DNA of 62,507 bases, filler included. It is 10 parts of 10 records of this genome, joined end to end, with 100 filler letters (N's around TTAATTAATTAA, not from the genome) between each part and the next. Parts side by side here need not be neighbours in the genome. Positions count along the whole stretch, not along the records: positions 30,311 to 38,942 come from SRR31147125_152824; 9 more parts are not named here. One strand, written 5' to 3'. Made by a program: the position numbers and the translations under genes. Below are positions 7,669 to 57,355 of the stretch, one piece after another (the stretch's first letter is position 1; each line of letters opens with the position of its first letter). The notes beneath the pieces are model-generated. The model saw nothing but the letters and a program-made list of their open reading frames with translations. It searched no databases and was not told where the DNA came from.

Positions 7669-7768
7669 NNNNNNNNNNNNNNNNNNNNNNNNNNNNNNNN
7701 NNNNNNNNNNNNTTAATTAATTAANNNNNNNNNNNNNNNNNNNNNNNNNNNNNNNNNNNNNNNNNNNN
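7669..7768. other. Artificial contig spacer (N44-TTAATTAATTAA-N44)
   Basis: 100-nt N run with a six-frame stop cassette. Confidence 0.98.
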
Positions 7769-7909: not shown

Positions 7910-9824
7910 ATGAAAACTACACCCATTGGCAAATATGAGTTTAATCGCGTCGTCGTCATATCCATTTTTCTTTTCGTCTTGATGACCGGAGGGGCGATAG
8001 GTGATTTTGTCAGGAACGGACATGCCGGGCATGGGGAAAGTACAAAACCAATGCCCCATGATCTTGGCGAGATCGTGGTGATCGGAGAAAAGATAGACGA
8101 ATTCATTGAAAAGAATTCGTCACAGGTGGTCAGCATCAATGCTCGTGAAATTGAAGAGAGAAATTTTCTCCAGGTCTATGAAGTCCTCGGCAGTATGTCG
8201 GGCGTGGATGTGAAGCAGGGAAGCAGCGGACTGGGTGCAAGGATCTCCATCCGGGGCGGAGGCGGCTCCGGAGCGGTATTGGTCCTGATCGACGGACGAC
8301 CTGCGGCAACCCTGCAGAACGGCGGCGTAGATTTGAGCAGTGTTCCCATCGACATCGTTGAGAAGATCACCATATTCAAACCACCCGTTCCGGTATGGCT
8401 TGGCCCCGGCAGCAGTGCGGGAGCTGTTTTCATAGAGACAAAACAAAAAAAAGCGCGAGTCAAATCAGAGAAAACAGGTAGAATAAGAGTCTCGGCAGGA
8501 TCATACGGGCTGGCAAAAGCCAGTGCAACCGCTAAACTGGATTCCCCAAAAAGCCAGGTGATGATATCCGGCGGCTTGTCTCACAAGGACGGAAAACGAG
8601 ATAACAGCCAGAGGGATCAGGGCCATTTCAGTCTGAATTACGATAAGAAAAATGGGGGTAATGCTCTTCAAATCAACGGAAAAACCTATGTGTCGGATCA
8701 TGGAGTGTCAGGCCCGGTATACAACCCGACCCCCAATGCCTGGCAGCGGTATGAAAAGGCAAGTGCGGACGTGAGAGTGAAAGGGATGGCCGATACGTTG
8801 GATTACACCTTCAAAAGCTGGGCAGATATCAAACAACTGGATGAAAGGGCGGAAAACGGAGATCGATCGACGCTGGATACCCTGACGGCCGGAATCGGAA
8901 CGGATTGTTCGTTGTGGGACCGTTCGGAAAAAAATGAATTTCGGTTCGGCGGACAGTTCGATCACAATCAGGTGGATCATACCTTGAGCGGAAAGCACCA
9001 TAGAAATCGGATCTCCGGTCATACGGAATACACGTTACGAACCGACCCCATGGCCTTCACCCTTGGCGCTCGGGGTGATTATTCCAACGATTTTCATTTT
9101 TCACCCGGCGGTCATGCCGGTATCAGCTACGGATTATCCGAGAACACGTTGCTGAAAACCAATGTCGGGTACTCGGAGAACATCCTCCTTTGGCCAGTTG
9201 TACCAACCGGTCCACGGTTCCATGGATCAGGTGAGAGGCAACCCAGATCTTGAAATGGAAGAAATCGTCTCCGTCACGCTGGGTGTAGAGCATCGTATCC
9301 GTGAAAAACATAAACTCGCATGTTCCCTGTTTAGAACCGAAACAAGGGATCTGATCGTATACCAGCGGGGAGAAGACAATATAAAAAGGCCGGAAAACAT
9401 TGACAAAGCATTCAAGCAAGGAATCGAAACAACAGCCAAGATCGTTGTGTCCGACAGGACAAGTGTCGATGTAACCCATATTTGGCAGAATACGGAAAAC
9501 AAAAGCAATGGCAGGGATCTCACCTATTCTCCGACCCACAGCATCAAACTAATTTTCAAAACAGCGTTAAAGACAGGAACAAAGCTGGAAGGGACCCTTC
9601 GAGGATATTCGGAACAGTATTCAGACACTCTCAATACGGAAGATGAAAAGATCGATGATTATGTTGCGATGGATGCAAAAGTAGTCCATCCGGTTGTTGC
9701 TTTCTCGAAAAAGGGATTGGTGTTTGCCCATTTTCATAACCTGTTTGACACGGACTATTCCTCCCACTACGGGTATCCTGATGATGGATTCAAGTTGGAG
9801 TGTGGGGTTAGTTTGAATTTCTGA
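7910..9824 (+). CDS. TonB-dependent receptor; apparent frameshift at ~9184
   Basis: TonB-box-like EIVVIG, plug motif ISIRG..VLVLIDGRP, GNPDL, C-terminal aromatic LNF; joining the two ORFs gives ENIPSFGQLY. Confidence 0.88.
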
Positions 9825-13913: not shown

Positions 13914-14013
13914 NNNNNNNNNNNNNNNNNNNNNNNNNNNNNNNNNNNNNNNNNNNNTTAATTAATTAANNNNNNNNNNNNNNNNNNNNNNNNNNNNNNN
14001 NNNNNNNNNNNNN
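13914..14013. other. Artificial contig spacer
   Basis: N run with TTAATTAATTAA. Confidence 0.98.
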
Positions 14014-19479: not shown

Positions 19480-19579
19480 NNNNNNNNNNNNNNNNNNNNN
19501 NNNNNNNNNNNNNNNNNNNNNNNTTAATTAATTAANNNNNNNNNNNNNNNNNNNNNNNNNNNNNNNNNNNNNNNNNNNN
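19480..19579. other. Artificial contig spacer
   Basis: N run with TTAATTAATTAA. Confidence 0.98.
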
Positions 19580-24875: not shown

Positions 24876-24975
24876 NNNNNNNNNNNNNNNNNNNNNNNNN
24901 NNNNNNNNNNNNNNNNNNNTTAATTAATTAANNNNNNNNNNNNNNNNNNNNNNNNNNNNNNNNNNNNNNNNNNNN
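24876..24975. other. Artificial contig spacer
   Basis: N run with TTAATTAATTAA. Confidence 0.98.
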
Positions 24976-26014: not shown

Positions 26015-27451
26015 TTACCTGCCGGATCCTGTCAGAATTGCCCTGGCAGTCAATACCAGAATTTTAAGGTCATTGAATAATGACCAGGTGTCAATGTACT
26101 TTAAGTCTAGCCATCCATTCTTCAAATTTTAATTCATTCCGCCTTGGAGAAATCTGCCACAAACAGGTCATCCCGGGTTTCATGGACAGGCGCCGGCGGT
26201 GCCAGATGGAATACTCATCAACCTCCTTGGGGATAGGGGGCGTGGTCCCACAAGGCTCATTTCTCCTTTGATAACGTTGATCAGCTGGGGGAGTTCGTCA
26301 AGGCTCGTTTTCCGTAAGAATGTACCAATCCAGGGGATGATCCTGGGGTCCGCTTTAATTTTAAAGGCCGGGCCGTCTGCCTCGTTGAGGGACATTAGAT
26401 TCTTCTGAAGCTCCTGGGCATTGTCAACCATGGTTCTGAATTTATAGCACATAAACCGCCGTCCATTGAGGCCTAACCGCTCCTGAGGAAAGAGTACGGG
26501 GCCTTTAGAGCTCCATTTGATGACAGCCCCGATGGCAATCAAAAGGGGAAAAACAGAATCAGCAGAAAAATGCCTCCCAGATAATCCATAAGGCTTTTGA
26601 TTAAAAGCTTGCCTTCATTTAGAGGGGTTGTTTGAAGTGCCATGGTCTTGATACCCATAAAATCCTCAAATCGTATTGTGGCGATTCCTGGCTGGAACAT
26701 GAGATGGTGAAGCTGCCAGTCCGGCATGATCCTGACTGTCACTCCCAGGTTCTCTGCCAGATAAAGATAGTAATCCGGCTGTTTGATTTTTTTTAAGGGG
26801 ATGGCAAAGATCAATTCATCCACAATCTGGTTTTTCAGGTAATCTTCCAGGTCCTGAATAGAGCCGATGACCCGGCAGTCATTCAGGACAGGGGTTCCCA
26901 CCTGCTCCTTTTCAATGTCGAAGCAGCCCTTTATGATATATCCAGAGTCTTTGTATTTTTCCAGGGACCGGATTACATCCCTTGCCCTTTCCCGGCTTCC
27001 GACAATTATAATGTTTTTGGTATTGTAGCCCTTGGAACGGATCCGTCTTAGGATTATAAAAACGACAACCTTGGAAAGAAATAGGAGAAAAATGTTCAGG
27101 ACAAGAAAAATACCGAGCAAAAGCCGGCTGATATTTTGAATATGGAGGGCGTAAAGACAGAGACTGAGGATGATCATACCCGCCATGGAGGACTTTACGA
27201 TGGTTGAAAAGAAATCCCACAAGGAGGATTGCCTGTAGGAAATATACAATCCTCCCCATTTGTAGCAGACATACCAAATAATGATGATCATCAAAAGAAT
27301 GATGTAATAGTTGGGGGCTGTTGTGAGTCCCCGCAATGAGGGGGAGCAGGTAAAGCTTAATATAGTAGGCTGCGATAAATGAAATAACGGTGATGAAGAT
27401 GTCCAGGGTTTTTTGGATATCGCTGATCAATGTCCCATATTCTCTAAGCAT
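26015..27451 (-). CDS. Exopolysaccharide priming glycosylphosphotransferase (sugar transferase); several apparent frameshifts
   Basis: TM N-terminus, IIIVGS, VDELIF, YKFRTM, RKTSLDELPQL.NV.KGEMSLVGPRP, KPGMTCLWQ, LDLKYID in successive frames. Confidence 0.88.
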
Positions 27452-28633
27452 TTTGCCTCTTTGAATGAAAATAGGTCAAAACAAGTCGAAATGGCCTTAA
27501 GCAGTACATCAACCAATGGAATCCTGAAGGCAGGTGAAAGGCTTTGAATTCCTTGTCAGTTGGTCCAAAAACAAGGCGGGTCAGATACCTGATTCTGTCT
27601 GCCATCCTGTCCCTGGTTCTAAGGTGGTAAAGCGAAAATCGTTGTTCAATGGCATATTCTTCTGTACCTGTTTTCGATGTAAGGATGCGGTTCACCGACT
27701 CCCTGGCAAGCTCCTGCAACGACGGATTGTTCCGGGAAACTTTTATAAAGTGGTCCGGCAGTTTGGCATCAAAGAGGAGCCATGATAAATAAAGACCAAG
27801 GGTAAGCATTCTTTTGCACCGATAATTTGACGCCAGCTTTGTTATTAATACCCAGTCCAGTGTCTTTTGGTTCACTATAGAGGCAATTGAATAAACCTGT
27901 TCAAGATGCTCCCAACCATGGCGTGTCCCGTGAATGCAGGCATGGATCAAATGATCCTCGTTTGAAAGACAGGGTAATTCCTTTTTATGGAAGCCAATAT
28001 GGCAGAGCCGGTGTTTGATATCTTCCAGAAAAGAGGTGTTGACAGATACATTCCGGAAAGTTCCCAATGCAACTCGATGCAGACCTGGTTTTTGCTCCAG
28101 AAAACAAGGTGGTCCTCCCATTCCCGGAAGCATTTCAGCTGGCGGCCGTTAAGGGGAAGATCTGGAATACACCCTTGTTGTTCAAGGAGCCTGACTGCCG
28201 GTAAAAGATCCTTTTTTGAAATGAGGATGTCCAAATCCGAATAGGGCCGTGCCCCACTATTTTGATAGACTTGCCTGGCCGTGACCGGTCCTTTGAAGGG
28301 AAGGACAAAAATGCCGTTTCCCTTAAAGTCCTCCAGGAGATTTAATAAAAAATATTCCAGATAGAAGTTTCTTGCATGGACTTTTACATAGGCCGTTTTA
28401 AACCGTTCGAATATCCCATCCGGAATCCGTCCGCTTGCAGACCGTTTCATGGCAAGGTAGATCAAGGCAAAGACCCTTTGCTCTATAGCAAGGGTAAAGA
28501 CCCTTTCCCAGTTTAGATCCCGAAGGTTCAGTCCATCCAAAACCATGTCTATATTATTTCCGGTTTTTGTACCCAGTAAAGCCAGTAGACATTTTATTTC
28601 CTTTATGTCAGCTGGGGGCAGTCCTTTTTTCAT
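27444..28633 (-). CDS. Uncharacterised nucleotidyltransferase family protein (NTP_transf_5-like); apparent frameshift at ~28030
   Basis: FKGP, RPYSDLDIL, IELHW, then HACIHG..HGW..L in the next frame. Confidence 0.8.
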
Positions 28634-30210: not shown

Positions 30211-30310
30211 NNNNNNNNNNNNNNNNNNNNNNNNNNNNNNNNNNNNNNNNNNNNTTAATTAATTAANNNNNNNNNNNNNNNNNNNNNNNNNNNNNNNNNN
30301 NNNNNNNNNN
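30211..30310. other. Artificial contig spacer
   Basis: N run with TTAATTAATTAA. Confidence 0.98.
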
Positions 30311-31889
30311 GGGGGCGCCTGGGTTTTTGACGAGCCAGTATGAGGCCCGGATGTCGGTGCGTTTTTTTCACGATACGAAGGGCGATGCAGGACAGAAGTA
30401 TATGCAGGCGCTCACACGGGTCGTCCAGCTGCATGGGAGCGATTTTCTCGATCGATTTTAACCGGTAGGTCAGTGTGCTGCGGTGAATAAAGAGCTTTTC
30501 GGAGGCCGTCATCAGGCTTTTATTGTTCATCAGATACGTTTCCAGCGTCAGCAGAAAATCCGTTCCGTTGGCCGCGTCGTATTCCTGCACGCGTATGGCT
30601 GCGTGATGGCACGTATGACACACGGGAAAGCACGAGCTGAGCTCATTAATGAGGTGTGTTTCCATAACATCGCGATAATACATAATTCGCCGGCCCTTCG
30701 TGGAGATACGAAGCGGCAGCGTTGCCAGATCAAACTGCATTTTCATTTGGGTGAAATCGCAGAACCGGAGCCCGACGCTGCATAGGGCGTTGTCCATGGA
30801 AAGCTGCTTTTTCAGTGCCGGCAGACACTGATCCAGCATTTCGCATGCGCCGTCATGAAGCAGGATCAGGATGAAGTCTTCATAGCGCAGCGCCACGCAA
30901 TCGGAGTAAGCGCCGGCAAAAACGTTTTCGTAATTGTACAGATAATGGCTGACGTTGCGGTCCTCCGGCGGAAGCATGACGAGCAGGATTTGATAATCAT
31001 CATTGGCGTTCCAGCCGAGACGGGCGAGGTTTGTATGTAAAAAGGTCGAATCCATTGTGGCGTATCGCAGCGCCGTGGCTACGCTCGTCCGGAAATAATT
31101 GCGCGTGCTTAAAAAAGTGTTGTACCGTTCCATGATGATTGGATGCATCAGGTCGGCAATGTAGTCCGCCAGCCACTGATGATGTTCCGTCAGAGGCTTT
31201 TTAACCTCGCAGAATATGAGCGTTGCCACGCGCATATCTCCATAATCGAACGCGATGTTTAAATGACGCGGCACGCCGCCGCCGACATCCAGAAACGTTG
31301 AGCGCGGGTAATTTTTCGGGTTGTTTGGCAGCATACGAACCTTTTCACGCGGCACCATAGGTACGATGCTCCGCTTGGCTGCCAGCGTTTCCTGCCAGAC
31401 AACGTCGTCCTCCGACGGCTGGAAGTTGTCGCTGTAGCCGATCAGCGCAAAATCAGAGGCGTACAACGACACATGACATTCCAAAAACATCGCGCACGCA
31501 TTCAGGACGGAACGAATCGGCTCGTTGGCTAAAAGGGCGCCGAGCAGCTTGCGTTCCAGACTGTCGTATTTTGTGAAGGTTTCCTGAATGTCGCGCAAAA
31601 TGGCTAAGATGTCGCTGTTGCCGGCCAGAACAAGACCGGTCAGGGCTTCGCGTGTTAAGACAGCGCACGCATCGTCTCCGCCGCCAATACAGATCAAATA
31701 TTTTGGGTACCCGTCGGCATCCCGGAGCTGTTCCCAGGACGCGATGTAGACAATCCCGGGCGTGTCGCTGCTGAGCCCTGATATAAACGGATAAATACTC
31801 GTCAGCTCCATCGGACCGTCGGGATTGCCGCAGATATGCTCTATGGGCAAAGACAGATCGTCCATGATCATTCGAAGGTTCAGTTTCAC
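30311..31889 (-). CDS. PucR/CdaR family transcriptional regulator
   Basis: C-terminal HTH TLETYL....SEKLFIHRSTLTYRL; GGAGG RBS before GTG. Confidence 0.9.
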
Positions 31890-32249
31890 AGTCGTTACCT
31901 CCCCGGAAATTCAGTTGCTCTGACAGTATTCAGCAATAATAAACGAGCACTTATAACAGAAACTATGCAATAACATTAATACAACAGGGTTGCTCCTACT
32001 GTCAATATAGTAATAATAGCTAAACTTGATGTTCCCAGCATGTACATGCGCAAGGGCGCGCATGGTAAAATTTGATGCATGAGTCTCAAGGGTGCCGGTA
32101 GCACGGAGTACCAATCGACAGTTTGAGAAGGCTTATTCCATAATATTCTATAAGCCGCATTGCAATCGACAACAAGGCCCCATTTTCGCGCCGTTGATAC
32201 TGCAAAATAGAGTAGTGTGCATGCTTTGTGAGCAAACGGAGGTCTTTTT

Positions 32250-34697
32250 ATGTATCAAAAAGCGGCGGTCAGTCCGAGAATCCAACGAATTCGAGACAAA
32301 AGACGCGTGCATGACAGCGGCAACGTCATTTTATGTGCCGAGCGTACGGATATATACACCCGATATTACAAGGCCCATGAGGCTGAGATTGCATCCCTCA
32401 AGCGTTCGGGCGCTTTGTACGAATGGTGCTGTCAGCATAAGGTCCGTCTGGAGGACGATGAGATATTTGTAGCCAACCTCGGGCGGGACTGGCGCAGCGC
32501 ACATCCCTACGTGGAGTGGGGCGCGGGCTGGCTGGAGCTGGCGCTGAAGCTGCCGGAGGAGGATTTTATACGCGCGTGGCAGTCGCCGGGGGCGTATGCG
32601 TACATATCGCCGGAGGATCGGATTATTTTTGAAGAGGCTGTTTCTTACTGGCGTGACCGGACGATCCAGGCGCATGTTTTATCCGTTTTGCCTGATGAGA
32701 TTTGGGCACTCAAGGGCGACAACTGTACGACCTTCGGCAACCGGACGAAAATGTTTACGGCGAGTATGCCCCAGGGCCACTACTGCCCCAATTACCGGAA
32801 GGTCATCGATGTCGGATGGGGCGGCATTATCCGTGAAGCGCAGGCGCGTATGGACGCCGTCGAAGGTCGCGTTTACGGCACGGACAATAAGCGCTTTACA
32901 ACCTGGCGCGCAATCAAACGCGTGGCCGAGGGTGCGAAGATTTTGACAGAGCATTATGCCGAGCTTGTTGCCGCCGAAGCGAAAAAAGCGGACGGCAAAC
33001 GTCAAGCGGAGCTTTACAAAATGGCGGACGGCCTGAGCTGGATCGCAGAAAAACCGGCTCGTACGTATTGGGAATCCCTGCAGATGATCCTGATCTACGA
33101 GCTGCTTTTACATACGGACGGCCAGGCGCACGGCATCACACTCGGCCGGCTTGACCAGTACTGCGGCCATTTTCTTGAAAAAGAGCTGGCGGAGGGCACG
33201 ATTACGCCGGAGGAAGCGCAGGAGATGGCCGACGCTTTTATTCTCAAGCTGGGCGATTACTTTGTGATGTTTTACGCGCCGCTCGGTACCGATCCAAATG
33301 AGAAAAAAGCATATCATTATGAGTGCGGCGGCCATCATTTTACGGTCGGCGGGCAGATGAAGGACGGGCGGGACGCGACCAATACCCTCACGCTCCTGTT
33401 TCTGCAAACGTACGCGCGGCTTTACCTCACGATTCCATCGCTCTCCGTGCGTATACATAAGCGTACGCCATATGAGGTATGGGAGCACGCCGTCGAATCC
33501 TCGAAAATTGCCGGCGGCATGCCGACGTTTGAAAACGATGAGATCATCATCCCGGCGCTCGTGGAGCGTGGAATGTCCTGTGAGGATGCCAACGATTACT
33601 GCATCATCGGCTGTGTCGAGCCGGCCGGCTGCGGCAATGAGTGGTCGGCCTGCGGCAGCAGCGGCGGGGAAAGCTTCAGTAATCTCGTCGGTATTATGAA
33701 CATGGCTATACATAACGGCGTAAACCCGAAAACCGGCTGCGCGGCCGGTGTTAAAACGGGTTATCTCTACGACTATAAGTCTTTCGACGAATTTAAGGAA
33801 GCTTTCTTAAAGCAGCTTAAATTCTTTTTGGATTGGCACATTTCGTTTGTCAATTTTTATGAGCTGGCCTACGGGCAGTATTTCCCGTGCGTAAGCGCGA
33901 CGGCGACGATTGACGGCTGCATGGAGAGCGGCCTGGACGTATTGGAAGGCGGCGCGAAATACAACTCCACCGGTTTTACGGCGCTTGGCGTCGGCAACGT
34001 CGCCGACAGTATGATGACCATTAAAAAGCTCGTGTTTGACGACGAGCTAATATCGGCGCGCACGCTCTACGACGCGCTCGTCAATAACTGGGAGGGCTAC
34101 GAGGCACTCCGGCAGACCATCATCCATGAGGTGCCGCACTACGGCAACAACATCAGGGAGGTAGACGAGCTGGGCGTATTTGCCCTGGGCGCGTATGCCG
34201 ACCATATGATGGGCGCGCGCGGCCCGCGCGGTAAATGGCGCGGCGGCACGTTTACAGTGACGACGCATCTGGAATTCGGAAACGTCACGATGGCAACACC
34301 CGACGGCCGCGCCGACGGCGACCCGCTGGCTGAGGCGATTTCCCCACGGCAGGGCTTTGACAAAAACGGCCCGACGGCTTATATGCTTTCGGCCGCAAAG
34401 CTGCCGCACTACAAGCTCGGCAACGGCGATATGCTTAATATCCGATTTTCACCAACGGCCGTTAATGGCGCGGACGGGACAAAAAAACTCACCGATCTCA
34501 TCGGCGCCTATTTTGACGAAGGCGGCATGCAGGTCCAGTTTAACGTCGTCGGCACAGACACGCTCTACGACGCACAGAAACATCCGGATAAATACAGCGA
34601 TTTGATCGTGCGTATCGCGGGCTTTTCAGTGTACTTTGTGGAGGTGCCAAAGCCGCTTCAGGATGACTTTATTACGCGCACGGAGCATATGGCGTAA
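32250..34697 (+). CDS. Glycyl radical enzyme (PFL-family, probable dehydratase/eliminase of unknown substrate)
   Basis: Cys loop IIGCVEP (single Cys), Gly loop LIVRIAGFS, ATPDGR, GRLDQY, QVQFNV. Confidence 0.93.
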   Translation: MYQKAAVSPRIQRIRDKRRVHDSGNVILCAERTDIYTRYYKAHEAEIASLKRSGALYEWCCQHKVRLEDDEIFVANLGRDWRSAHPYVEWGAGWLELALKLPEEDFIRAWQSPGAYAYISPEDRIIFEEAVSYWRDRTIQAHVLSVLPDEIWALKGDNCTTFGNRTKMFTASMPQGHYCPNYRKVIDVGWGGIIREAQARMDAVEGRVYGTDNKRFTTWRAIKRVAEGAKILTEHYAELVAAEAKKADGKRQAELYKMADGLSWIAEKPARTYWESLQMILIYELLLHTDGQAHGITLGRLDQYCGHFLEKELAEGTITPEEAQEMADAFILKLGDYFVMFYAPLGTDPNEKKAYHYECGGHHFTVGGQMKDGRDATNTLTLLFLQTYARLYLTIPSLSVRIHKRTPYEVWEHAVESSKIAGGMPTFENDEIIIPALVERGMSCEDANDYCIIGCVEPAGCGNEWSACGSSGGESFSNLVGIMNMAIHNGVNPKTGCAAGVKTGYLYDYKSFDEFKEAFLKQLKFFLDWHISFVNFYELAYGQYFPCVSATATIDGCMESGLDVLEGGAKYNSTGFTALGVGNVADSMMTIKKLVFDDELISARTLYDALVNNWEGYEALRQTIIHEVPHYGNNIREVDELGVFALGAYADHMMGARGPRGKWRGGTFTVTTHLEFGNVTMATPDGRADGDPLAEAISPRQGFDKNGPTAYMLSAAKLPHYKLGNGDMLNIRFSPTAVNGADGTKKLTDLIGAYFDEGGMQVQFNVVGTDTLYDAQKHPDKYSDLIVRIAGFSVYFVEVPKPLQDDFITRTEHMA

Positions 34698-34734
34698 GTC
34701 GCTGATAGCGTCAATACGCAGGATATAAGGAGCT

Positions 34735-36302
34735 GTGGCAATGGAGTATTTATTCAATGAGGAAAATCTGAGTTATCCGGAGGTGAAGGTCCGGCACGCA
34801 TGGGATACGCCACCCGCGCCGATTCCCGACGGCGATATCGGCGAGACGATCACATCAGACGTCGTCATTATCGGCGGTGGCATATCGGGGCTGGCTACGG
34901 CCGCCCGATGCGCGCAGCTGGGACTTAAATGCGTCGTGCTGGAGAAATTCCGGGGGCTTGTCGCCCACGGGGCGCATATTGCGTCGGTTGGCTCGAAGCT
35001 CCAGAGGGAAAACGGCGTTATCATCGACAAAAAACAGTTTGCGCGGGACTGGATGCGTATCTGCGGCAGCCGTGTCGACGAAAATCTCCTGTGGCTCTTT
35101 ATCAATCGCAGCGAAGAGGCTTTTGAATGGCTGTTGGAATGCGGCGGAGACGAGGTAGAGGCCGTACTGTTCGGTGGAAATTACAGAGGGCCGGATTTCA
35201 CCGAATATGCGGGCACGCATTTTTTAATGCGCTCGGAAGGCAGCAAGTACAAACATATGGGTGCGCTCCTCATTTGCGAAATCATGGAGGACGTGGCCGT
35301 TAACGGCGGCAGCGAAATCATTCGCAATACGCGCGTGGAGCAGCTGGAGAAAACGGACGGCCGGGTGACGGCGGCAATTGCCAAAGACCTTGACGGGATA
35401 TACAGGCGGTATAAGGCTACACGCGGCGTCGTGCTGGCAACGGGGGACATTGGCGGCGATGCGGATATGCTTGCCGCGTACTCACCCTCGGGCTCGCGCC
35501 GGCGAAAAACGGCTATTACCCGCCAGGCCTCAATACGGGAGACGGCCATAAAATGGGCTTCTGGGCCGGCGGCGCTTTTGAAAACGCGCCCTGGGCACTG
35601 TCGCTGCATTTGATTGCCTACGCGTATTACTGCTTCTTTTTCCTGCACGTCAATCGCCAGGGCAACCGATTTATGAACGAGGATACATGGATTCAGGCCA
35701 AAGCCATCCGCTGTCTGATGCAGCCTCAAGGCGACTGGGCCTATACGATATTCGACTCTAAATGGTACGACGAATGCGCAAAGCTGGCCCAGTACGGCGG
35801 CGGCCAGTTTGTAGATTCCCTGGGCGCTGTGTACGGCCGGCCCTGGACAGAAAACAACGACACCCAGAAAACCATCGAAAACTATGTCTCCAACGGCTTG
35901 TGTGCCCGGTGCGACACGCTTGAGGAGCTGGCGGAAAAAATAGACGTGCCGGCTGACAATCTCGTGAAGAGCGTGGCGCGCTATAACGAGCTGTATGAGC
36001 TGGGCGAGGACGTGGACTATGGCAAACGCTCCAATCTCCTCACGCGGATAGACAAACCGCCGTATTACGCGCTCAAGTGGGGACCGGCGCTCTTGAACGT
36101 TTTCGGCGGACTTCTCATCGACACGAAAATGCGTGTGCTGAATAAAGACCGCGAGCCGGTGCCGGGACTTTTGGCAGTCGGTAACGTCTCCGGCGGCTTT
36201 TACGGCGTTGATTACCCGCTGCTGTTAAGCGGCAACAGCCACGGGCGGGCCCTGACCTGGGCGCGTGCAGCGGCTGAGACGCTCGAGGACGGCGAAGCTT
36301 AA
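34735..36302 (+). CDS. FAD-dependent oxidoreductase (fumarate reductase/flavocytochrome c flavin-subunit family); apparent frameshift at ~35485
   Basis: DVVIIGGGISG, VLATGD, NTGDGHKM, GNRFMNE, GGLLID, PGLLAVGN. Confidence 0.88.
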
Positions 36303-36362
36303 CTATGGCATTTATTAGTTGGAGCAACTTTATACCATAAACAGCAAGAGGGAGGAATTTGT

Positions 36363-37373
36363 ATGGAAAAGGTAACCAGAACCTCGTTTCTGAAAAGAAC
36401 GATCCGCTCCAAGGCGTTTACCCTCGTCATCCTGCTCGCGATACTGATCGTACTGTTCACGATTCTGGCGGCGCTCAACGACGCCATTTTCTTCAGCAGC
36501 CGTACCTTTATCAGCATTCTGCAGGACCTGGCTGTGCCCGCCTTTCTGGCAATCGGCGCAGGCTGTCTCATCGTCTCCGGCGCGATCGACCTGTCACAGT
36601 CATCCGTCGGCGCGATGGCGGGTGTTTTTGTGGCCATTGGCATCAGCTGGTGGAATCTGCCGTGGTTTGTGGCGCTGCTGGTAGCCCTCGTTGCGGCGGC
36701 CTGTATCGGGCTTATCAATGCTGTCATTATTAATGAGCTGCATATGGCACCCTTCATCGCCACCATCGCGATGTCTGCTGTCATTAAGGCGATCATGATG
36801 CTGATCAGCACCGACAACATCGGCGTACTGCAGAGCGTCATTAATTTTGATGACCCGGCTATCAATGTCATTGGTACCTACGCGATCGGCAAAATCCCCG
36901 CAACCGTTATACTGATGGTCATCGCCTTCATTGTCTATGGTCTGATGCTTTCGCGGTCGCAGCTGGGAAAAAGCATCTATATGATCGGCGGCAACCGGGC
37001 GGCGGCGCGCCTTTCCGGCATCAATTCCAAAAAAATATCCTACTTCCTGTTTATAAACTGTTCCGTTTTGGGCGGGCTGTCCGGCCTTATCTATACGACG
37101 CGGTCCAAGCAGGGGAGCCTTTTAGCGCTCCAGAGCGATCAGTTTACAGGCCTGACGGCCGCAATCCTCGGCGGCATCTCATTTGCCGGCGGGTCGGGCG
37201 GCATGGGCGGCGCTTTCGTCGGCCTCCTTGTTATCAAAACCTTCAACAAGGGCATGATGATCTGCGGCTCAAGCACGTATCTTACGTCGGTGTTGTCGGG
37301 CGCACTGCTGCTCGCGGCGCTCACGCTCGACTATATGAGCCAGAGAAGACAGCGCAAACGCGTCGGTGCTTAG
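36363..37373 (+). CDS. Sugar (CUT2/RbsC-type) ABC transporter permease
   Basis: SGAIDLS, PFIATI, IGGN..AARLSGI, AAILGG.SF.GG.G. Confidence 0.92.
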   Translation: MEKVTRTSFLKRTIRSKAFTLVILLAILIVLFTILAALNDAIFFSSRTFISILQDLAVPAFLAIGAGCLIVSGAIDLSQSSVGAMAGVFVAIGISWWNLPWFVALLVALVAAACIGLINAVIINELHMAPFIATIAMSAVIKAIMMLISTDNIGVLQSVINFDDPAINVIGTYAIGKIPATVILMVIAFIVYGLMLSRSQLGKSIYMIGGNRAAARLSGINSKKISYFLFINCSVLGGLSGLIYTTRSKQGSLLALQSDQFTGLTAAILGGISFAGGSGGMGGAFVGLLVIKTFNKGMMICGSSTYLTSVLSGALLLAALTLDYMSQRRQRKRVGA

Positions 37374-37376
37374 GGA

Positions 37377-38939
37377 ATGATTGGAGAAAGGATGGCCGGA
37401 GCTATGCAGCAAACAGAAAATAATGCGGTAAACAGCGAAATCCGTTTAGATGATCAATATCTGGAGTTTGTCGGAATCGAGAAGGCATTCCCGGGTGTCA
37501 AGGCCCTTGACGATATCAGCTTCCGTGCCGACGGCGGCAAGGTGCTCGCGCTGCTTGGCGAAAACGGGGCGGGTAAATCAACGCTTTTGAAGATCATGAG
37601 CGGTGACCTGAGAGCCGACGACGGAAAGATCATTCTTAACGGCGAGACACTGTCGATGGCGTCGCCGAACCAGGCAATTAAGGCCGGTATCAGCGTCATC
37701 TATCAGGAACGCCAGCTCATCCCGACAATGAGCGTTATGGAGAATATATATATCGGCGCGCTGCCGATCAAAGCGGGATTGGTGAATTACGCAAAACTCA
37801 AGTCTGACACGCAGGAGATCATTGATAAATTCGGCCTCCCGATTGACCCGGAAGCCCCCGTGATGACTTTGTCCATCGCCCATCAGCAAATGGTAGAGAT
37901 TATGAAGGCCTACCGGCGTGACTCGAAGGTCATCGCTTTTGACGAACCCACCGCTCCCATGACCGATACGGAAATCGATATTCTTTTTGACCTGATCCGC
38001 CAGCTTAAACAGGCGGGGAAAATCGTCATCTATGTGTCTCACCGTATGAAGGAAATATTCCAGGTCACGGACGAAATCGTTGTGTTAAAAGACGGGCGTC
38101 TCGTCAAGACACTGAACACGGCGCTGACAAACGAACAGGAGCTCATTGCCGCAATGGTCGGCCGGGATATCGGCGATACATACGCCAATCTCAGCCGTAA
38201 CGACGCGTTTGGCGACGTGCTGCTGGAAGTCAGTAATATGACGACGTACGCCGTGCACGATATTTGCTTTTCGCTGCATAAGGGAGAGGTACTCGGCTTT
38301 GCCGGGCTCGTCGGCGCCGGCCGCACAGAGGTTGTGCGTGCATTGTTCGGCGCGGACGAGGTCCTTTCCGGCGAGATCAAGCTGGAAGGGCAATGCGTTA
38401 AATTCGATACGCCGCGCGAAGCTATAAATGCCGGCATCGCGCTGTGTCCGGAAGACCGGAAGGAGCAGGGGCTTGTACTGTGGTCCTCCGTTCGTGACAA
38501 TATCTGCATGCCGGTCCTGAAAAAGCTTAAAAAATGGCTGTTTCTGGATTTGAAGGCAGAGGATGAGCTGACACTGAGCGCCATCAAGAAATATAACATT
38601 AAAACGCCCACCTTTGATAAATCGGTGCTGGAGCTGTCGGGCGGCAATCAGCAGAAGGTCATTCTCGGGCGGTGGACGTCCGAAAAGATGATCACGAAGC
38701 TTCTCATATTGGATGAGCCGACAAAAGGTATTGATGTCGGTACAAAAGCCGAGATTTATCAGATGGTCTGCGATTTTGCCAAGCAGGGGATTGGTGTGAT
38801 CTTCATTTCCTCGGAGCTGACTGAAGTTATTAACGTGGCCGATACGATCATCGTTATGCATAACGGGCATATAACAGGCACGGTAAAGCGCCAAGACGCC
38901 ACAGAAGAAAACGTTCTGGCGATGGCCATGCTGGATTAG
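37377..38939 (+). CDS. Sugar ABC transporter ATP-binding protein (tandem ABC domains)
   Basis: GENGAGKST, FDEPT, PEDRK, LSGGNQQK, LDEPTKGIDVG. Confidence 0.95.
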   Translation: MIGERMAGAMQQTENNAVNSEIRLDDQYLEFVGIEKAFPGVKALDDISFRADGGKVLALLGENGAGKSTLLKIMSGDLRADDGKIILNGETLSMASPNQAIKAGISVIYQERQLIPTMSVMENIYIGALPIKAGLVNYAKLKSDTQEIIDKFGLPIDPEAPVMTLSIAHQQMVEIMKAYRRDSKVIAFDEPTAPMTDTEIDILFDLIRQLKQAGKIVIYVSHRMKEIFQVTDEIVVLKDGRLVKTLNTALTNEQELIAAMVGRDIGDTYANLSRNDAFGDVLLEVSNMTTYAVHDICFSLHKGEVLGFAGLVGAGRTEVVRALFGADEVLSGEIKLEGQCVKFDTPREAINAGIALCPEDRKEQGLVLWSSVRDNICMPVLKKLKKWLFLDLKAEDELTLSAIKKYNIKTPTFDKSVLELSGGNQQKVILGRWTSEKMITKLLILDEPTKGIDVGTKAEIYQMVCDFAKQGIGVIFISSELTEVINVADTIIVMHNGHITGTVKRQDATEENVLAMAMLD

Positions 38940-38942
38940 GGG

Positions 38943-39042
38943 NNNNNNNNNNNNNNNNNNNNNNNNNNNNNNNNNNNNNNNNNNNNTTAATTAATTAANN
39001 NNNNNNNNNNNNNNNNNNNNNNNNNNNNNNNNNNNNNNNNNN
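38943..39042. other. Artificial contig spacer
   Basis: N run with TTAATTAATTAA. Confidence 0.98.
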
Positions 39043-40000
39043 GAAGTTCGGCTTCTGCGGCCTTAATGCCTGCCTGATCGCCTTTTCTTTCGGCTTTTAG
39101 TTTTTTCTTGAATGCTTCAATCTGACGGACATCAAGCAGCTGAGCGTTTGAGGACGCGAGGAAGGGGCCCCATCCGTCCGAAGTGTTGGCCAGAATCTGA
39201 CGCTCACGTGCAACTTTCTCCACGCTACCAATTCGGCCGAACTGAATGAAGAAGTAGAGAATCTTTTGCTTCAACTCGTCTGAAAGATCAGCACGCCAGA
39301 CCATCGGATCAGAGGGGATCAGAGGTGAACGCCAGATCTCTTTGATTTTGCCGGCCATTTCCGGGTTGGTTTTCGGAATGCGGTCGTAAAGGGTTTCCGT
39401 ATTGTTGGTCGCGACATCGACTTTTTGGGTAGCGACGGCGATGGCATTGCCCTGGTGGTTGGAGCTGACGACACGCTTGAAGCACTCTTCAGGTGTCTTG
39501 TTGTTCAGAGCCCAGACGTAGTAGCCGGGAATGGCGAAACCGGAGGTTGAGTTTGGATCACCGTTGCCGAAGGTCTTGGTTCCGTCACACTTGAGAACAT
39601 CTTCGAGTGAGTTCAGGTCGGAATCTTTGTTGGCGATCAACAGGGAGTAGTAGCCTTTTGCTCCGTTATCCTTGATGGTCTGAGCAAAAACTTCGCCACC
39701 CGCGCGGTCAACAGCCTGGATAGCCGATTTATTGCCGAACCAGCCGAGGTCGACTTTCTTAAAGCGCATGCCTTCAATGACTCCGGCGTAGTCAGAAGCA
39801 AAAAACATTTTGACAGGGATGCCGAGAGACTTTTCCATCTCCTTGACAAAAGGTCCAAAACTTTCTTCCAGAGTGGTTTGGGATTCAGTCGCGATAATCC
39901 CGAAATTGAGTTGCTTCGGCATGTTGCCATGTCCAGAAGCGAAGGCGGTGCCACAGAGCATGGCCATGGCGATCAGGGTGAGCATCAATCTTTTCAGCAT
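39043..40000 (-). CDS. phnD: Phosphonate ABC transporter substrate-binding protein (C-terminus truncated)
   Basis: FGIIATES, DYAGVIEGMRF, GNKSA, GDPNSTSG, VDVATNN, SPLIPSDP. Confidence 0.92.
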
Positions 40001-40066
40001 GATTTTTCTCCTTTGGATGAAATAGCGATTCAATGAATGGTGCGATTCGTCTGTCTTTAAGACGAT

Positions 40067-40878
40067 TTATCCAACTTTCAGGATGGGAGCAGGGCGCTCA
40101 GCACCCAGCTGACAGCAGCCGTCCTCGACTCCGTAAAGTTCTACAAGGTCTTTTTCGCTGATTCCGGAGGCTTTGCCGTCGTAGACAACCCGACCATCTT
40201 TCAGAGCGATGATGCGGTCACAGCGGGTTGTCGCAACTTCGAACTGGTGAAGGGAGACGACAACGGTGGTGCCGTCCTGACGGTTGATGTCGCAAAGTAA
40301 ATTCATCACCCGGTCGGATGAGGCAGGGTCAAGTGAAGCAATCGGCTCATCGGCGAGAATAAGTTTCGCTTCCTGGGTCAGAGCCCTGGCGATGGCACCT
40401 CTCTGCTGTTGTCCCCCGGACAGGGTTGAAGCACGCTGGTGGGCGTACTCAACCATATTGACCCGCTCGAGTGCTTCAAGGGCTTTGATGCGTTCTTCGC
40501 GGGGAAAGAGTCTGATAACCCCTTTCCAGTAGGGATTATGGGCCAGGCGTCCGATCAGGACATTGGTCAGCAGTGAAAGGCGTCCGACGAGGTTGAACTG
40601 CTGGAAGATGACACCGATGTCGCGGCGCAATGCGCGATATTCAGGGGTCTGCTTATTGCCTAAATGAATGGCTCGAGAAAAAGCTTGAGGTGACGACTTG
40701 ACTTGTCCATGGTCTCAAGCCCGGAGATGGTGCGAATTAAAGTTGATTTGCCCGATCCGGAAGCGCCGATCAGCCCGACCATCTCGCCCTTTTCGATCGA
40801 AACGTTAATGTCGTTCAAAACCTGATTGTTTCCGAATGTCTTGTTTAAACCTGAGATTTCTATGACGGTTTCAGACAT
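40067..40878 (-). CDS. phnC: Phosphonate ABC transporter ATP-binding protein; apparent frameshift at 40678-40682
   Basis: GASGSGKST in the first [36 protein letters not shown] in the second. Confidence 0.92.
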
Positions 40879-45204: not shown

Positions 45205-45304
45205 NNNNNNNNNNNNNNNNNNNNNNNNNNNNNNNNNNNNNNNNNNNNTTAATTAATTAANNNNNNNNNNNNNNNNNNNNNNNNNNNNNNNNNNNNNNNN
45301 NNNN
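45205..45304. other. Artificial contig spacer
   Basis: N run with TTAATTAATTAA. Confidence 0.98.
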
Positions 45305-50818: not shown

Positions 50819-50918
50819 NNNNNNNNNNNNNNNNNNNNNNNNNNNNNNNNNNNNNNNNNNNNTTAATTAATTAANNNNNNNNNNNNNNNNNNNNNNNNNN
50901 NNNNNNNNNNNNNNNNNN
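50819..50918. other. Artificial contig spacer
   Basis: N run with TTAATTAATTAA. Confidence 0.98.
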
Positions 50919-57255: not shown

Positions 57256-57355
57256 NNNNNNNNNNNNNNNNNNNNNNNNNNNNNNNNNNNNNNNNNNNNT
57301 TAATTAATTAANNNNNNNNNNNNNNNNNNNNNNNNNNNNNNNNNNNNNNNNNNNN
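57256..57355. other. Artificial contig spacer
   Basis: N run with TTAATTAATTAA. Confidence 0.98.

Follow-up and report, generated by a model that had tools for sequence, protein, structure and literature searches.

A glycyl radical enzyme of an uncharacterised family, predicted to cleave C–O bonds, encoded in an operon with a flavoprotein and a CUT2-type importer

The 62,507-base stretch of DNA analysed here, referred to as the window, consists of about ten separate contigs joined by nine identical artificial spacers (N44-TTAATTAATTAA-N44, where TTAATTAATTAA gives stops in all six frames); because the spacers separate contigs, gene neighbourhoods cannot be read across them. This study concerns one whole contig (30311–38942, 8,632 bp; studied as 30311–38939) encoding a glycyl radical enzyme (GRE) of 815 residues. 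A preliminary description of the locus had listed the GRE, followed by a flavoprotein and then by the permease and ATPase of a CUT2-type ATP-binding cassette (ABC) importer, with a divergent PucR-family regulator on the other strand, and all of these genes were seen in the Pfam scan (Table 1).

Table 1. Features of the GRE contig and spacers of the window
Feature	Position	Strand	Remarks
PucR-family transcriptional regulator	30311..31889	-	PF13556 (HTH_30), E=4.6e-15; divergent from the GRE
Divergent intergenic region	31890..32249	.	360 bp; promoters and regulator site presumed
Glycyl radical enzyme, 815 aa	32250..34697	+	PF02901 and PF01228
FAD_binding_2 flavoprotein, ~522 aa in relatives	34735..36302	+	PF00890 in two pieces; reads as two open reading frames
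CUT2-type ABC permease	36363..37373	+	PF02653 (BPD_transp_2), E=4.5e-23; first of two in the closest relative
CUT2-type fused double ABC ATPase	37377..38939	+	PF00005, two stretches
Artificial linker	30211..30310	.	Left end of the GRE contig
Artificial linker	38943..39042	.	Right end of the GRE contig
Nine spacers of the window	7669-7768, 13914-14013, 19480-19579, 24876-24975, 30211-30310, 38943-39042, 45205-45304, 50819-50918, 57256-57355		

The four plus-strand genes are separated by gaps of 37 bp (GRE to flavoprotein), 60 bp and 3 bp, short enough to fit a single operon. The whole contig is collinear with a complete 4.6-Mb Sporobacter chromosome (genome G001, locus L001), with 8,594 aligned bases at 90.7% nucleotide identity. 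There, a PucR gene on the minus strand is followed by the GRE orthologue (94% identical), a 522-residue flavoprotein, a first permease (97% identical to that of the window), the ATPase, a second permease, a 446-residue binding protein, a 349-residue short-chain dehydrogenase/reductase (SDR), a second GRE, a URO-D-like gene, a DUF169 gene, a DAO-Rieske protein and a major facilitator superfamily (MFS) transporter. For all six genes compared with this relative, dN/dS is 0.05–0.09, and the locus is a real operon under purifying selection. The contig cuts the 3' end of the PucR gene, whose reading frame enters the linker with no stop codon within the contig; the product is 91% identical to its Sporobacter orthologue over 511 of 541 residues, has the C-terminal HTH_30 domain of PucR-type regulators and reaches no NCBIfam equivalog. 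The divergent region presumably carries the promoters and a binding site for this regulator. A promoter and terminator scan of the region returned three promoter-like sites against 1.5 ± 1.3 in shuffled sequences, not above controls, and an Rfam scan of the contig gave nothing at E≤0.1.

The flavoprotein is read in the window as two overlapping open reading frames (ORFs), 34735–35613 and 35553–36302, matching the N- and C-terminal halves of PF00890. Compared with L001, the window lacks one base in the string ...TCACC-CTCGGG..., and Logan contigs from four of four public runs, compared over 34700–36400 (one contig per run), have the extra base, as a C behind 35484 in runs X1, X2 and X3 and as a G behind 35486 in run X4. 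Run X1, which contains 97% of the sampled words and is possibly the source sample, counts as an independent assembly rather than as an independent sample. The frameshift near 35484–35486 is an assembly error, and the gene is almost certainly intact. The split flavoprotein, together with the absence of an activase gene from the window, could also be taken to mean that the cluster is decaying or silent. This is hardly credible, given the recovery of the missing base in all four runs, dN/dS values of 0.056 and 0.084 for the two flavoprotein halves and of 0.076 for the GRE, and the presence in the Sporobacter relative of an intact 522-residue flavoprotein gene and of six activases.

The GRE matches PF02901 (E=1.3e-152) and PF01228 (E=3.5e-30), and it has the barrel domain, the C-terminal glycine-radical domain and the RVxG[FY]-type loop of the GRE superfamily. 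Its translation carries IIGCVEPAGCGNEWSACGSSGGES, VRIAGFS, PQGHY, GQAHG and GGTFTVTTH, the longer reads of these motifs being IIGCVEPAGCGNEWSACGSSGGESFSNL, VRIAGFSVYF and MPQGHY; every sequence feature named in the preliminary description (a single-Cys GCVEP loop, RIAGF, the histidines of QGHY and QAHG, an insertion, and FTVTTH) was found in it. The key residues are the thiyl C455, the base E457 and the radical-bearing G791, together with H177 and H294; residues 459–475 of the Cys loop form an insertion specific to the family. A confident AlphaFold model, computed from an alignment of 40 sequences (pLDDT 89.5, pTM 0.91), falls below pLDDT 50 only at residues 349–359. The model adopts the ten-stranded barrel and superposes on more than 30 GRE structure entries with template-modelling (TM) scores of 0.84–0.90. 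The top structural matches are the propanediol dehydratases 9rcp/9rco and 5i2g and the glycerol dehydratase 1r8w (TM 0.89–0.90, 30–32% identity), and structure comparison gives identities of 28% to HypD, 30% to YbiW, 26–27% to PflD and 25–29% to CutC.

Placement relative to the characterised GREs rests on curated hidden Markov model cut-offs, bit scores against PDB sequences and structure-based identities. The highest score is to TIGR01774, the PFL2/glycerol dehydratase subfamily (522.2 bits, cut-off 678.2), followed by HpfG (457 bits, cut-off 1000), HpsG (453, cut-off 1000), HypD (429, cut-off 1100), the PflD-type model NF007437 (382.7, cut-off 1109), CutC (367, cut-off 1050), indoleacetate decarboxylase (329, cut-off 1100), HPA decarboxylase (291, cut-off 1150) and PFL (133, cut-off 994). 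As every curated model is below its cut-off, and no solved GRE exceeds 32% identity, the enzyme is unassigned, in agreement with the preliminary description. A large-database search found 279 proteins at E≤0.001 among 7,998 scored candidates; the 120 matches listed range from 94% to 47% identity and bear generic names only. Judged by record titles and names, the family appears to be common in Oscillospiraceae of termite guts and digesters. In open-access full text (CC-licensed PMC articles and bioRxiv), no assignment of this family and no description of a GRE–flavoprotein–CUT2 cluster was found; in the part of a uric-acid paper that was covered (PMC12507026), GREs are named in the reference list only.

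Homologues of at least 780 residues (113 of 121, the 8 shorter fragments being dropped) were aligned to define the family. H177, H294, C455, E457, F668 and G791 are invariant in all 113 sequences. E464 is present in 110 (D in the other three), W465 in 109 (Y in the other four) and E474 in 105; the conservation of these three residues makes the Cys-loop insertion a hallmark of the family, which reads GCVEPxGxGxEW(S/P)A(C/S)GxxGxES and occurs alongside QGH, QxHG and GGTFT(V/M)T. The enzyme thus belongs to a large uncharacterised family with a Cys-loop insertion of its own. Second-shell positions divide this family further: H363 is present in 37 of 37 members of the subclade of at least 60% identity and in 25 of the remaining 76, and T672 in 36 of 37 and 7 of 76, respectively. 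These differences suggest that the subclade may have a substrate of its own.

The invariant C455-V-E457 conforms to the Cys-x-Glu motif of GRE 1,2-eliminases and isomerases. According to excerpts of a June 2026 review (PMC13450708), this motif is common to all characterised eliminases (C–O, C–N and C–S) and ring-opening isomerases, and conversely no characterised GRE with such a loop falls outside these classes. The characterised Cys-x-Glu enzymes comprise glycerol dehydratase (GD), propanediol dehydratase (PD), HpfG, HypD, HpyG, HpzG, CutC, IslA/IseG, HpsG, HplG, YbiW and PflD. Residue correspondences were drawn from an alignment to the glycerol dehydratase 1r8w, with the numbering verified by counting. 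H177, H294, C455 and E457 correspond to H164, H281, C433 and E435, all kept, and G791 falls within the aligned glycine loop, whereas G295, G361 and F668 take the places of S282, Y339 and Y640. The Cys loop is four residues longer than in 1r8w, with the result that a glycine inside the insertion stands opposite D447 of glycerol dehydratase. From the 1R9D structure, we take H281, S282, Y339, D447 and Y640 to be substrate-binding residues of glycerol dehydratase. H164 is named as another in the excerpts of the review (PMC13450708). Of this set, the GRE keeps only H164 and H281. E474 may take over the role of D447, which is a guess from the alignment.

The enzyme could be seen as a divergent orthologue of the B12-independent glycerol/1,2-propanediol dehydratases, acting on a small diol. 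The best sequence and structure matches (1r8w, 5i2a and 9rco/9rcp) are to these enzymes, and with the glycerol dehydratase of Clostridium butyricum (1R8W/1R9D) and the propanediol dehydratases (5I2A/5I2G, 9RCO-9RCR) it has in common the fold, the GCVEP Cys-x-Glu loop, the equivalents of H164 and H281 (as well as those of C433 and E435) and the glycine loop. However, the identity is only 30–32%, the TIGR01774 score falls short of its cut-off, D447, S282, Y339 and Y640 are not kept, and the four-residue Cys-loop insertion, with its conserved E464, W465 and E474, is family-wide. The genetic context also differs: no microcompartment, aldehyde dehydrogenase or 1,3-propanediol dehydrogenase genes occur on the contig or within 10 kb on each side in L001, an ABC importer and a flavoprotein being present instead of a diol pathway, and an importer with a binding protein would not be expected for glycerol or propanediol. 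A small-diol dehydratase is, on this evidence, highly improbable.

A comparison with YbiW and PflD, the anhydro-sugar-phosphate isomerases (8ID7, 8ID0, 8YJO), raises the idea that the GRE is a ring-opening isomerase of their kind, cleaving the ring C–O bond of an unphosphorylated anhydro-sugar or glycoside-like compound imported by the ABC system. The Cys-x-Glu motif is present, the transporter is of a sugar type, and the Cys loop is longer than that of glycerol dehydratase and, as is seen on alignment with YbiW, includes a conserved Trp. YbiW and PflD substrates are reportedly phosphorylated and said, in a 2024 JACS paper, to enter through phosphotransferase systems (PTS), in contrast to the ABC importer at this locus. 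That both enzymes use sugar rings is stated in the excerpts of the review (PMC13450708). Against a YbiW/PflD-like isomerase stand identities of 30% to YbiW and 26–27% to PflD, the NF007437 score far below its cut-off, a GCVEP loop in place of the GCIET of YbiW, and an L001 operon in which no aldolase or kinase was found. This assignment is doubtful.

The transport genes bear on the class of substrate. The permease and the ATPase have the features of a CUT2 importer; no binding-protein gene occurs before the contig ends, 3 bases past the ATPase stop codon, and no equivalog cut-off is reached, the best NCBIfam model for the ATPase being AraG (609.6 bits, cut-off 689). As the window is a chain of contigs, the absence of a binding protein and of an activase is bounded by the ends of the GRE contig. 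In L001, the binding-protein gene lies two genes past the ATPase, that is, beyond the point at which the contig ends, and the solute-binding protein that the preliminary description called missing is a contig-end artefact. The L001 protein has a weak Peripla_BP_4 match (E=5.5e-10), and a PDB sequence search with it gave nothing at E≤0.01. Farther along the chromosome, about 8 kb downstream of the orthologue, are the second GRE, the URO-D-like gene, DUF169 and the DAO-Rieske fusion (L034:3301-9818, G001 3216300-3222800). The second GRE is 37% identical to the first, has the Cys loop GCQE and lacks the H281 equivalent; genes like it adjoin the GRE in L038, L039 and L046. DUF169 genes recur beside GREs of the clade (L004:219-1238, L042, L043 and L034:7286-8053).

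A tblastn survey covered 37 related loci on 35 distinct contigs (L045 and L048 duplicating L008 and L006, respectively), with GRE identities from 46% to 94%; its counts are lower bounds, many contigs being short. CUT2 genes flank the GRE in at least 7 of the 37 loci (L001, L002, L003, L005, L007, L037 and L038), and in L002, L003, L005, L037 and L038 a binding-protein gene ends 21–422 nt upstream of the GRE. A Papillibacter metagenome-assembled genome (L007, GRE 84% identical) repeats the order PucR, GRE, flavoprotein, CUT2. A flavoprotein-like gene occurs in at least five distinct contigs. The transporter link is broader than the flavoprotein link, and the sugar-like imported substrate proposed in the preliminary description is plausible. 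Conservation of the flavoprotein linkage, on which that description had staked its proposal, was half borne out when checked over related loci: the linkage is confined to the two closest relatives (94% and 84% identity), and the proposed coupling to flavin redox is accordingly lineage-specific.

The flavoprotein itself is a stand-alone FAD domain. The intact L001 orthologue matches FAD_binding_2 at E=3.4e-43, and its 40 N-terminal residues, read by eye, show no signal peptide or twin-arginine (Tat) motif. The best models are all below cut-off, with vinyl phenol reductase at 166.6 bits (cut-off 600) and flavocytochrome c, TIGR01813, at 159.8 (cut-off 285), and with ketosteroid dehydrogenases, TcuA and cyclohexanecarboxylate desaturases far under theirs. 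With the soluble fumarate reductase/flavocytochrome c3 and urocanate reductase systems (1D4D, 1QJD, 6T85) it has in common the FAD_binding_2 fold and an equivalent of H365, but it lacks their haem and FMN domains. We take H365, E378, R381, R402, H504 and R545 (numbering counted in the 1D4D alignment) to be the fumarate-binding and proton-delivery residues. In the L001 protein aligned to 1d4d only H365 is kept, R402 being Q, H504 and R545 both L, and E378 and R381 both Y. The protein is therefore not a fumarate reductase; the earlier label of a fumarate-reductase-family flavoprotein is right as to the fold and fails as to the fumarate-binding residues. Flavoproteins of the FAD_binding_2 family oxidise or reduce C–C bonds adjoining an activating group, and it is plausible that this one would act on a carbonyl product of the GRE.

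No activase-like sequence was detected in the 62.5-kb window by tblastn with a relative's activase (E≤1e-3), nor was one found by a Pfam scan of 44 ORFs chosen from the 116 listed for the window. G001 has six activases above the TIGR02494 cut-off and 17 full-length PFL2-type GRE genes. The orthologue, at 3.206 Mb, has no activase within 10 kb, the nearest being about 886 kb away, which agrees with the earlier proposal that the activase is encoded elsewhere. Seven of the 17 GREs lie within ~2 kb of an activase and ten, the orthologue among them, do not; with 17 GREs and six activases, sharing would have to be common in this genome. A quick tree built from the window GRE and the 17 paralogues (SH-aLRT support only, the careful search being unfinished) joins the orthologue to the 595k paralogue (49% identity). 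Both lie in a group of eight with weak support (84), among whose members are the activase-linked paralogues 633k, 635k and 1616k. These three are 41–42% identical to the enzyme and have the same Cys-loop hallmark, and their glycine loop reads RVAGFSAYFV against RIAGFSVYFV in the window GRE. Glycine-loop sequence seems to govern activase specificity, cross-activation having been shown only for similar loops according to the review excerpts (PMC13450708). In at least three related loci (L039, L053 and L054; GRE identity 68–72%), an activase gene lies 61–125 nt downstream of the GRE. The most economical reading is that the enzyme would be activated in trans by one of the activases found beside the 633k, 635k and 1616k paralogues.

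Taken together, we consider it moderately probable that the contig holds a section of a catabolic operon from an uncultured, Sporobacter-like member of the Oscillospiraceae. In this operon, a predicted GRE C–O eliminase or isomerase, activated in trans, would act on an imported carbohydrate-like compound. The data show which genes are present and in what order, the catalytic motifs, the fold, conservation across the family, purifying selection, activases elsewhere in a close relative and the link to the transporter; what we infer is the class of substrate, C–O cleavage as the chemistry, activation in trans and the part played by the flavoprotein. The CUT2 importer would take up a neutral polyhydroxylated compound, such as a sugar, polyol, cyclitol, anhydro-sugar or O-alkyl sugar, and an activase encoded elsewhere in the genome would place the radical on G791. 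The C455 thiyl radical would then abstract hydrogen from a carbinol carbon while E457 deprotonates the hydroxyl on it, and the adjoining C–O bond, be it to a hydroxyl, ether or ring oxygen, would be cleaved, H177 and H294 taking the same roles as their glycerol dehydratase counterparts. The resulting carbonyl compound would be processed by the flavoprotein, and in L001 also by the SDR and the second GRE, with the operon presumably controlled by the PucR-type regulator.

Several observations weigh against this proposal. No acid aligns in the GRE with D447 of glycerol dehydratase, and Y339, S282 and Y640 are all replaced. Documented cases of a GRE being cross-activated by an activase encoded at a distance are rare, as the review excerpts have it (PMC13450708). 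Of 25 distinct loci whose downstream flank reaches at least 1 kb, only three (L001, L007 and L046) have a flavoprotein gene directly downstream of the GRE, the one in L046 being a paralogue of 31% identity. The L001 binding protein, with its weak Pfam match and no solved relative, does not fix the ligand class. Relatives at 61–79% identity have as neighbours a xanthine-dehydrogenase-type molybdenum (Mo) protein, an old yellow enzyme (OYE) flavoprotein, URO-D-like, DUF169 or housekeeping genes, and such differing neighbourhoods are as compatible with aromatic or alicyclic plant compounds as they are with sugars.

The last of these points leads to a serious rival, in which the substrate is a plant-derived aromatic, alicyclic or heterocyclic non-carbohydrate for which the CUT2 system has been recruited. 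Members of the clade at 63–72% identity stand beside xanthine-dehydrogenase-type Mo proteins in L006, L008, L035 and L061, OYE-type flavoproteins occur in L006, L053 and L054, and URO-D-like genes and an SDR are also found. The nearest families of the flavoprotein include vinyl phenol reductase, ketosteroid dehydrogenases and cyclohexanecarboxylate desaturases, and the 446-residue binding protein is atypical. Sporobacter and Papillibacter isolates are, in addition, known degraders of aromatic acids. The permease and the ATPase, however, match monosaccharide systems best (AraG, 609.6 bits; xylose, 502; ribose, 500; all sub-cut-off), and the other neighbourhoods are those of paralogues, possibly with other substrates. 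We regard a non-carbohydrate substrate as unlikely, and a carbohydrate-like compound as the preferred assignment.

Within the carbohydrate-like assignment, a more specific route can be sketched as a long shot. It would combine the GRE and the KstD-like flavoprotein with the SDR and second GRE of L001 in an oxygen-free pathway that deoxygenates an imported cyclitol or O-alkylated sugar through radical C–O eliminations in succession, with flavin-dependent desaturation to follow; water or methanol might, for example, be lost from a wood-derived methyl-sugar or methyl-inositol.

The contigs of the window range from 40% to 60% GC and may come from more than one organism. Several genes outside the GRE contig look split or truncated in the manner of the flavoprotein gene: at 27444-28633 (-), two overlapping ORFs match positions 154-248 and 3-148 of the PF14907 profile; at 7910-9824 (+), the Plug domain and the barrel of a TonB receptor lie in two overlapping ORFs; and at 40067-40630 (-), a phnC-like ATPase is without the first ~76 profile positions. 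These genes are consistent with an indel-prone assembly. A phosphonate-binding protein at 38987-40033, on another contig, has no bearing on the GRE locus. Yet another contig (57460-61412, -) encodes a 733-residue CCG/4Fe-4S protein (HdrD-like) and, after it, EtfA- and EtfB-like genes; this electron-transfer module has no connection with the GRE locus.

GREs open chemically difficult substrates to anaerobes, and to our knowledge each newly assigned GRE family has so far uncovered a new pathway. The locus represents one of many orphan GRE clades, but one with a distinctive active-site loop. Entire GRE clades still lack experimental validation according to excerpts of the June 2026 review (PMC13450708). 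The family is repeatedly linked to an ABC importer that has a binding protein of its own, which makes ligand screening of that protein a practical route to the substrate. If true, the deoxygenation route would bring to the family a GRE chemistry, ether or cyclitol C–O cleavage, and a pathway logic that have not yet been described.

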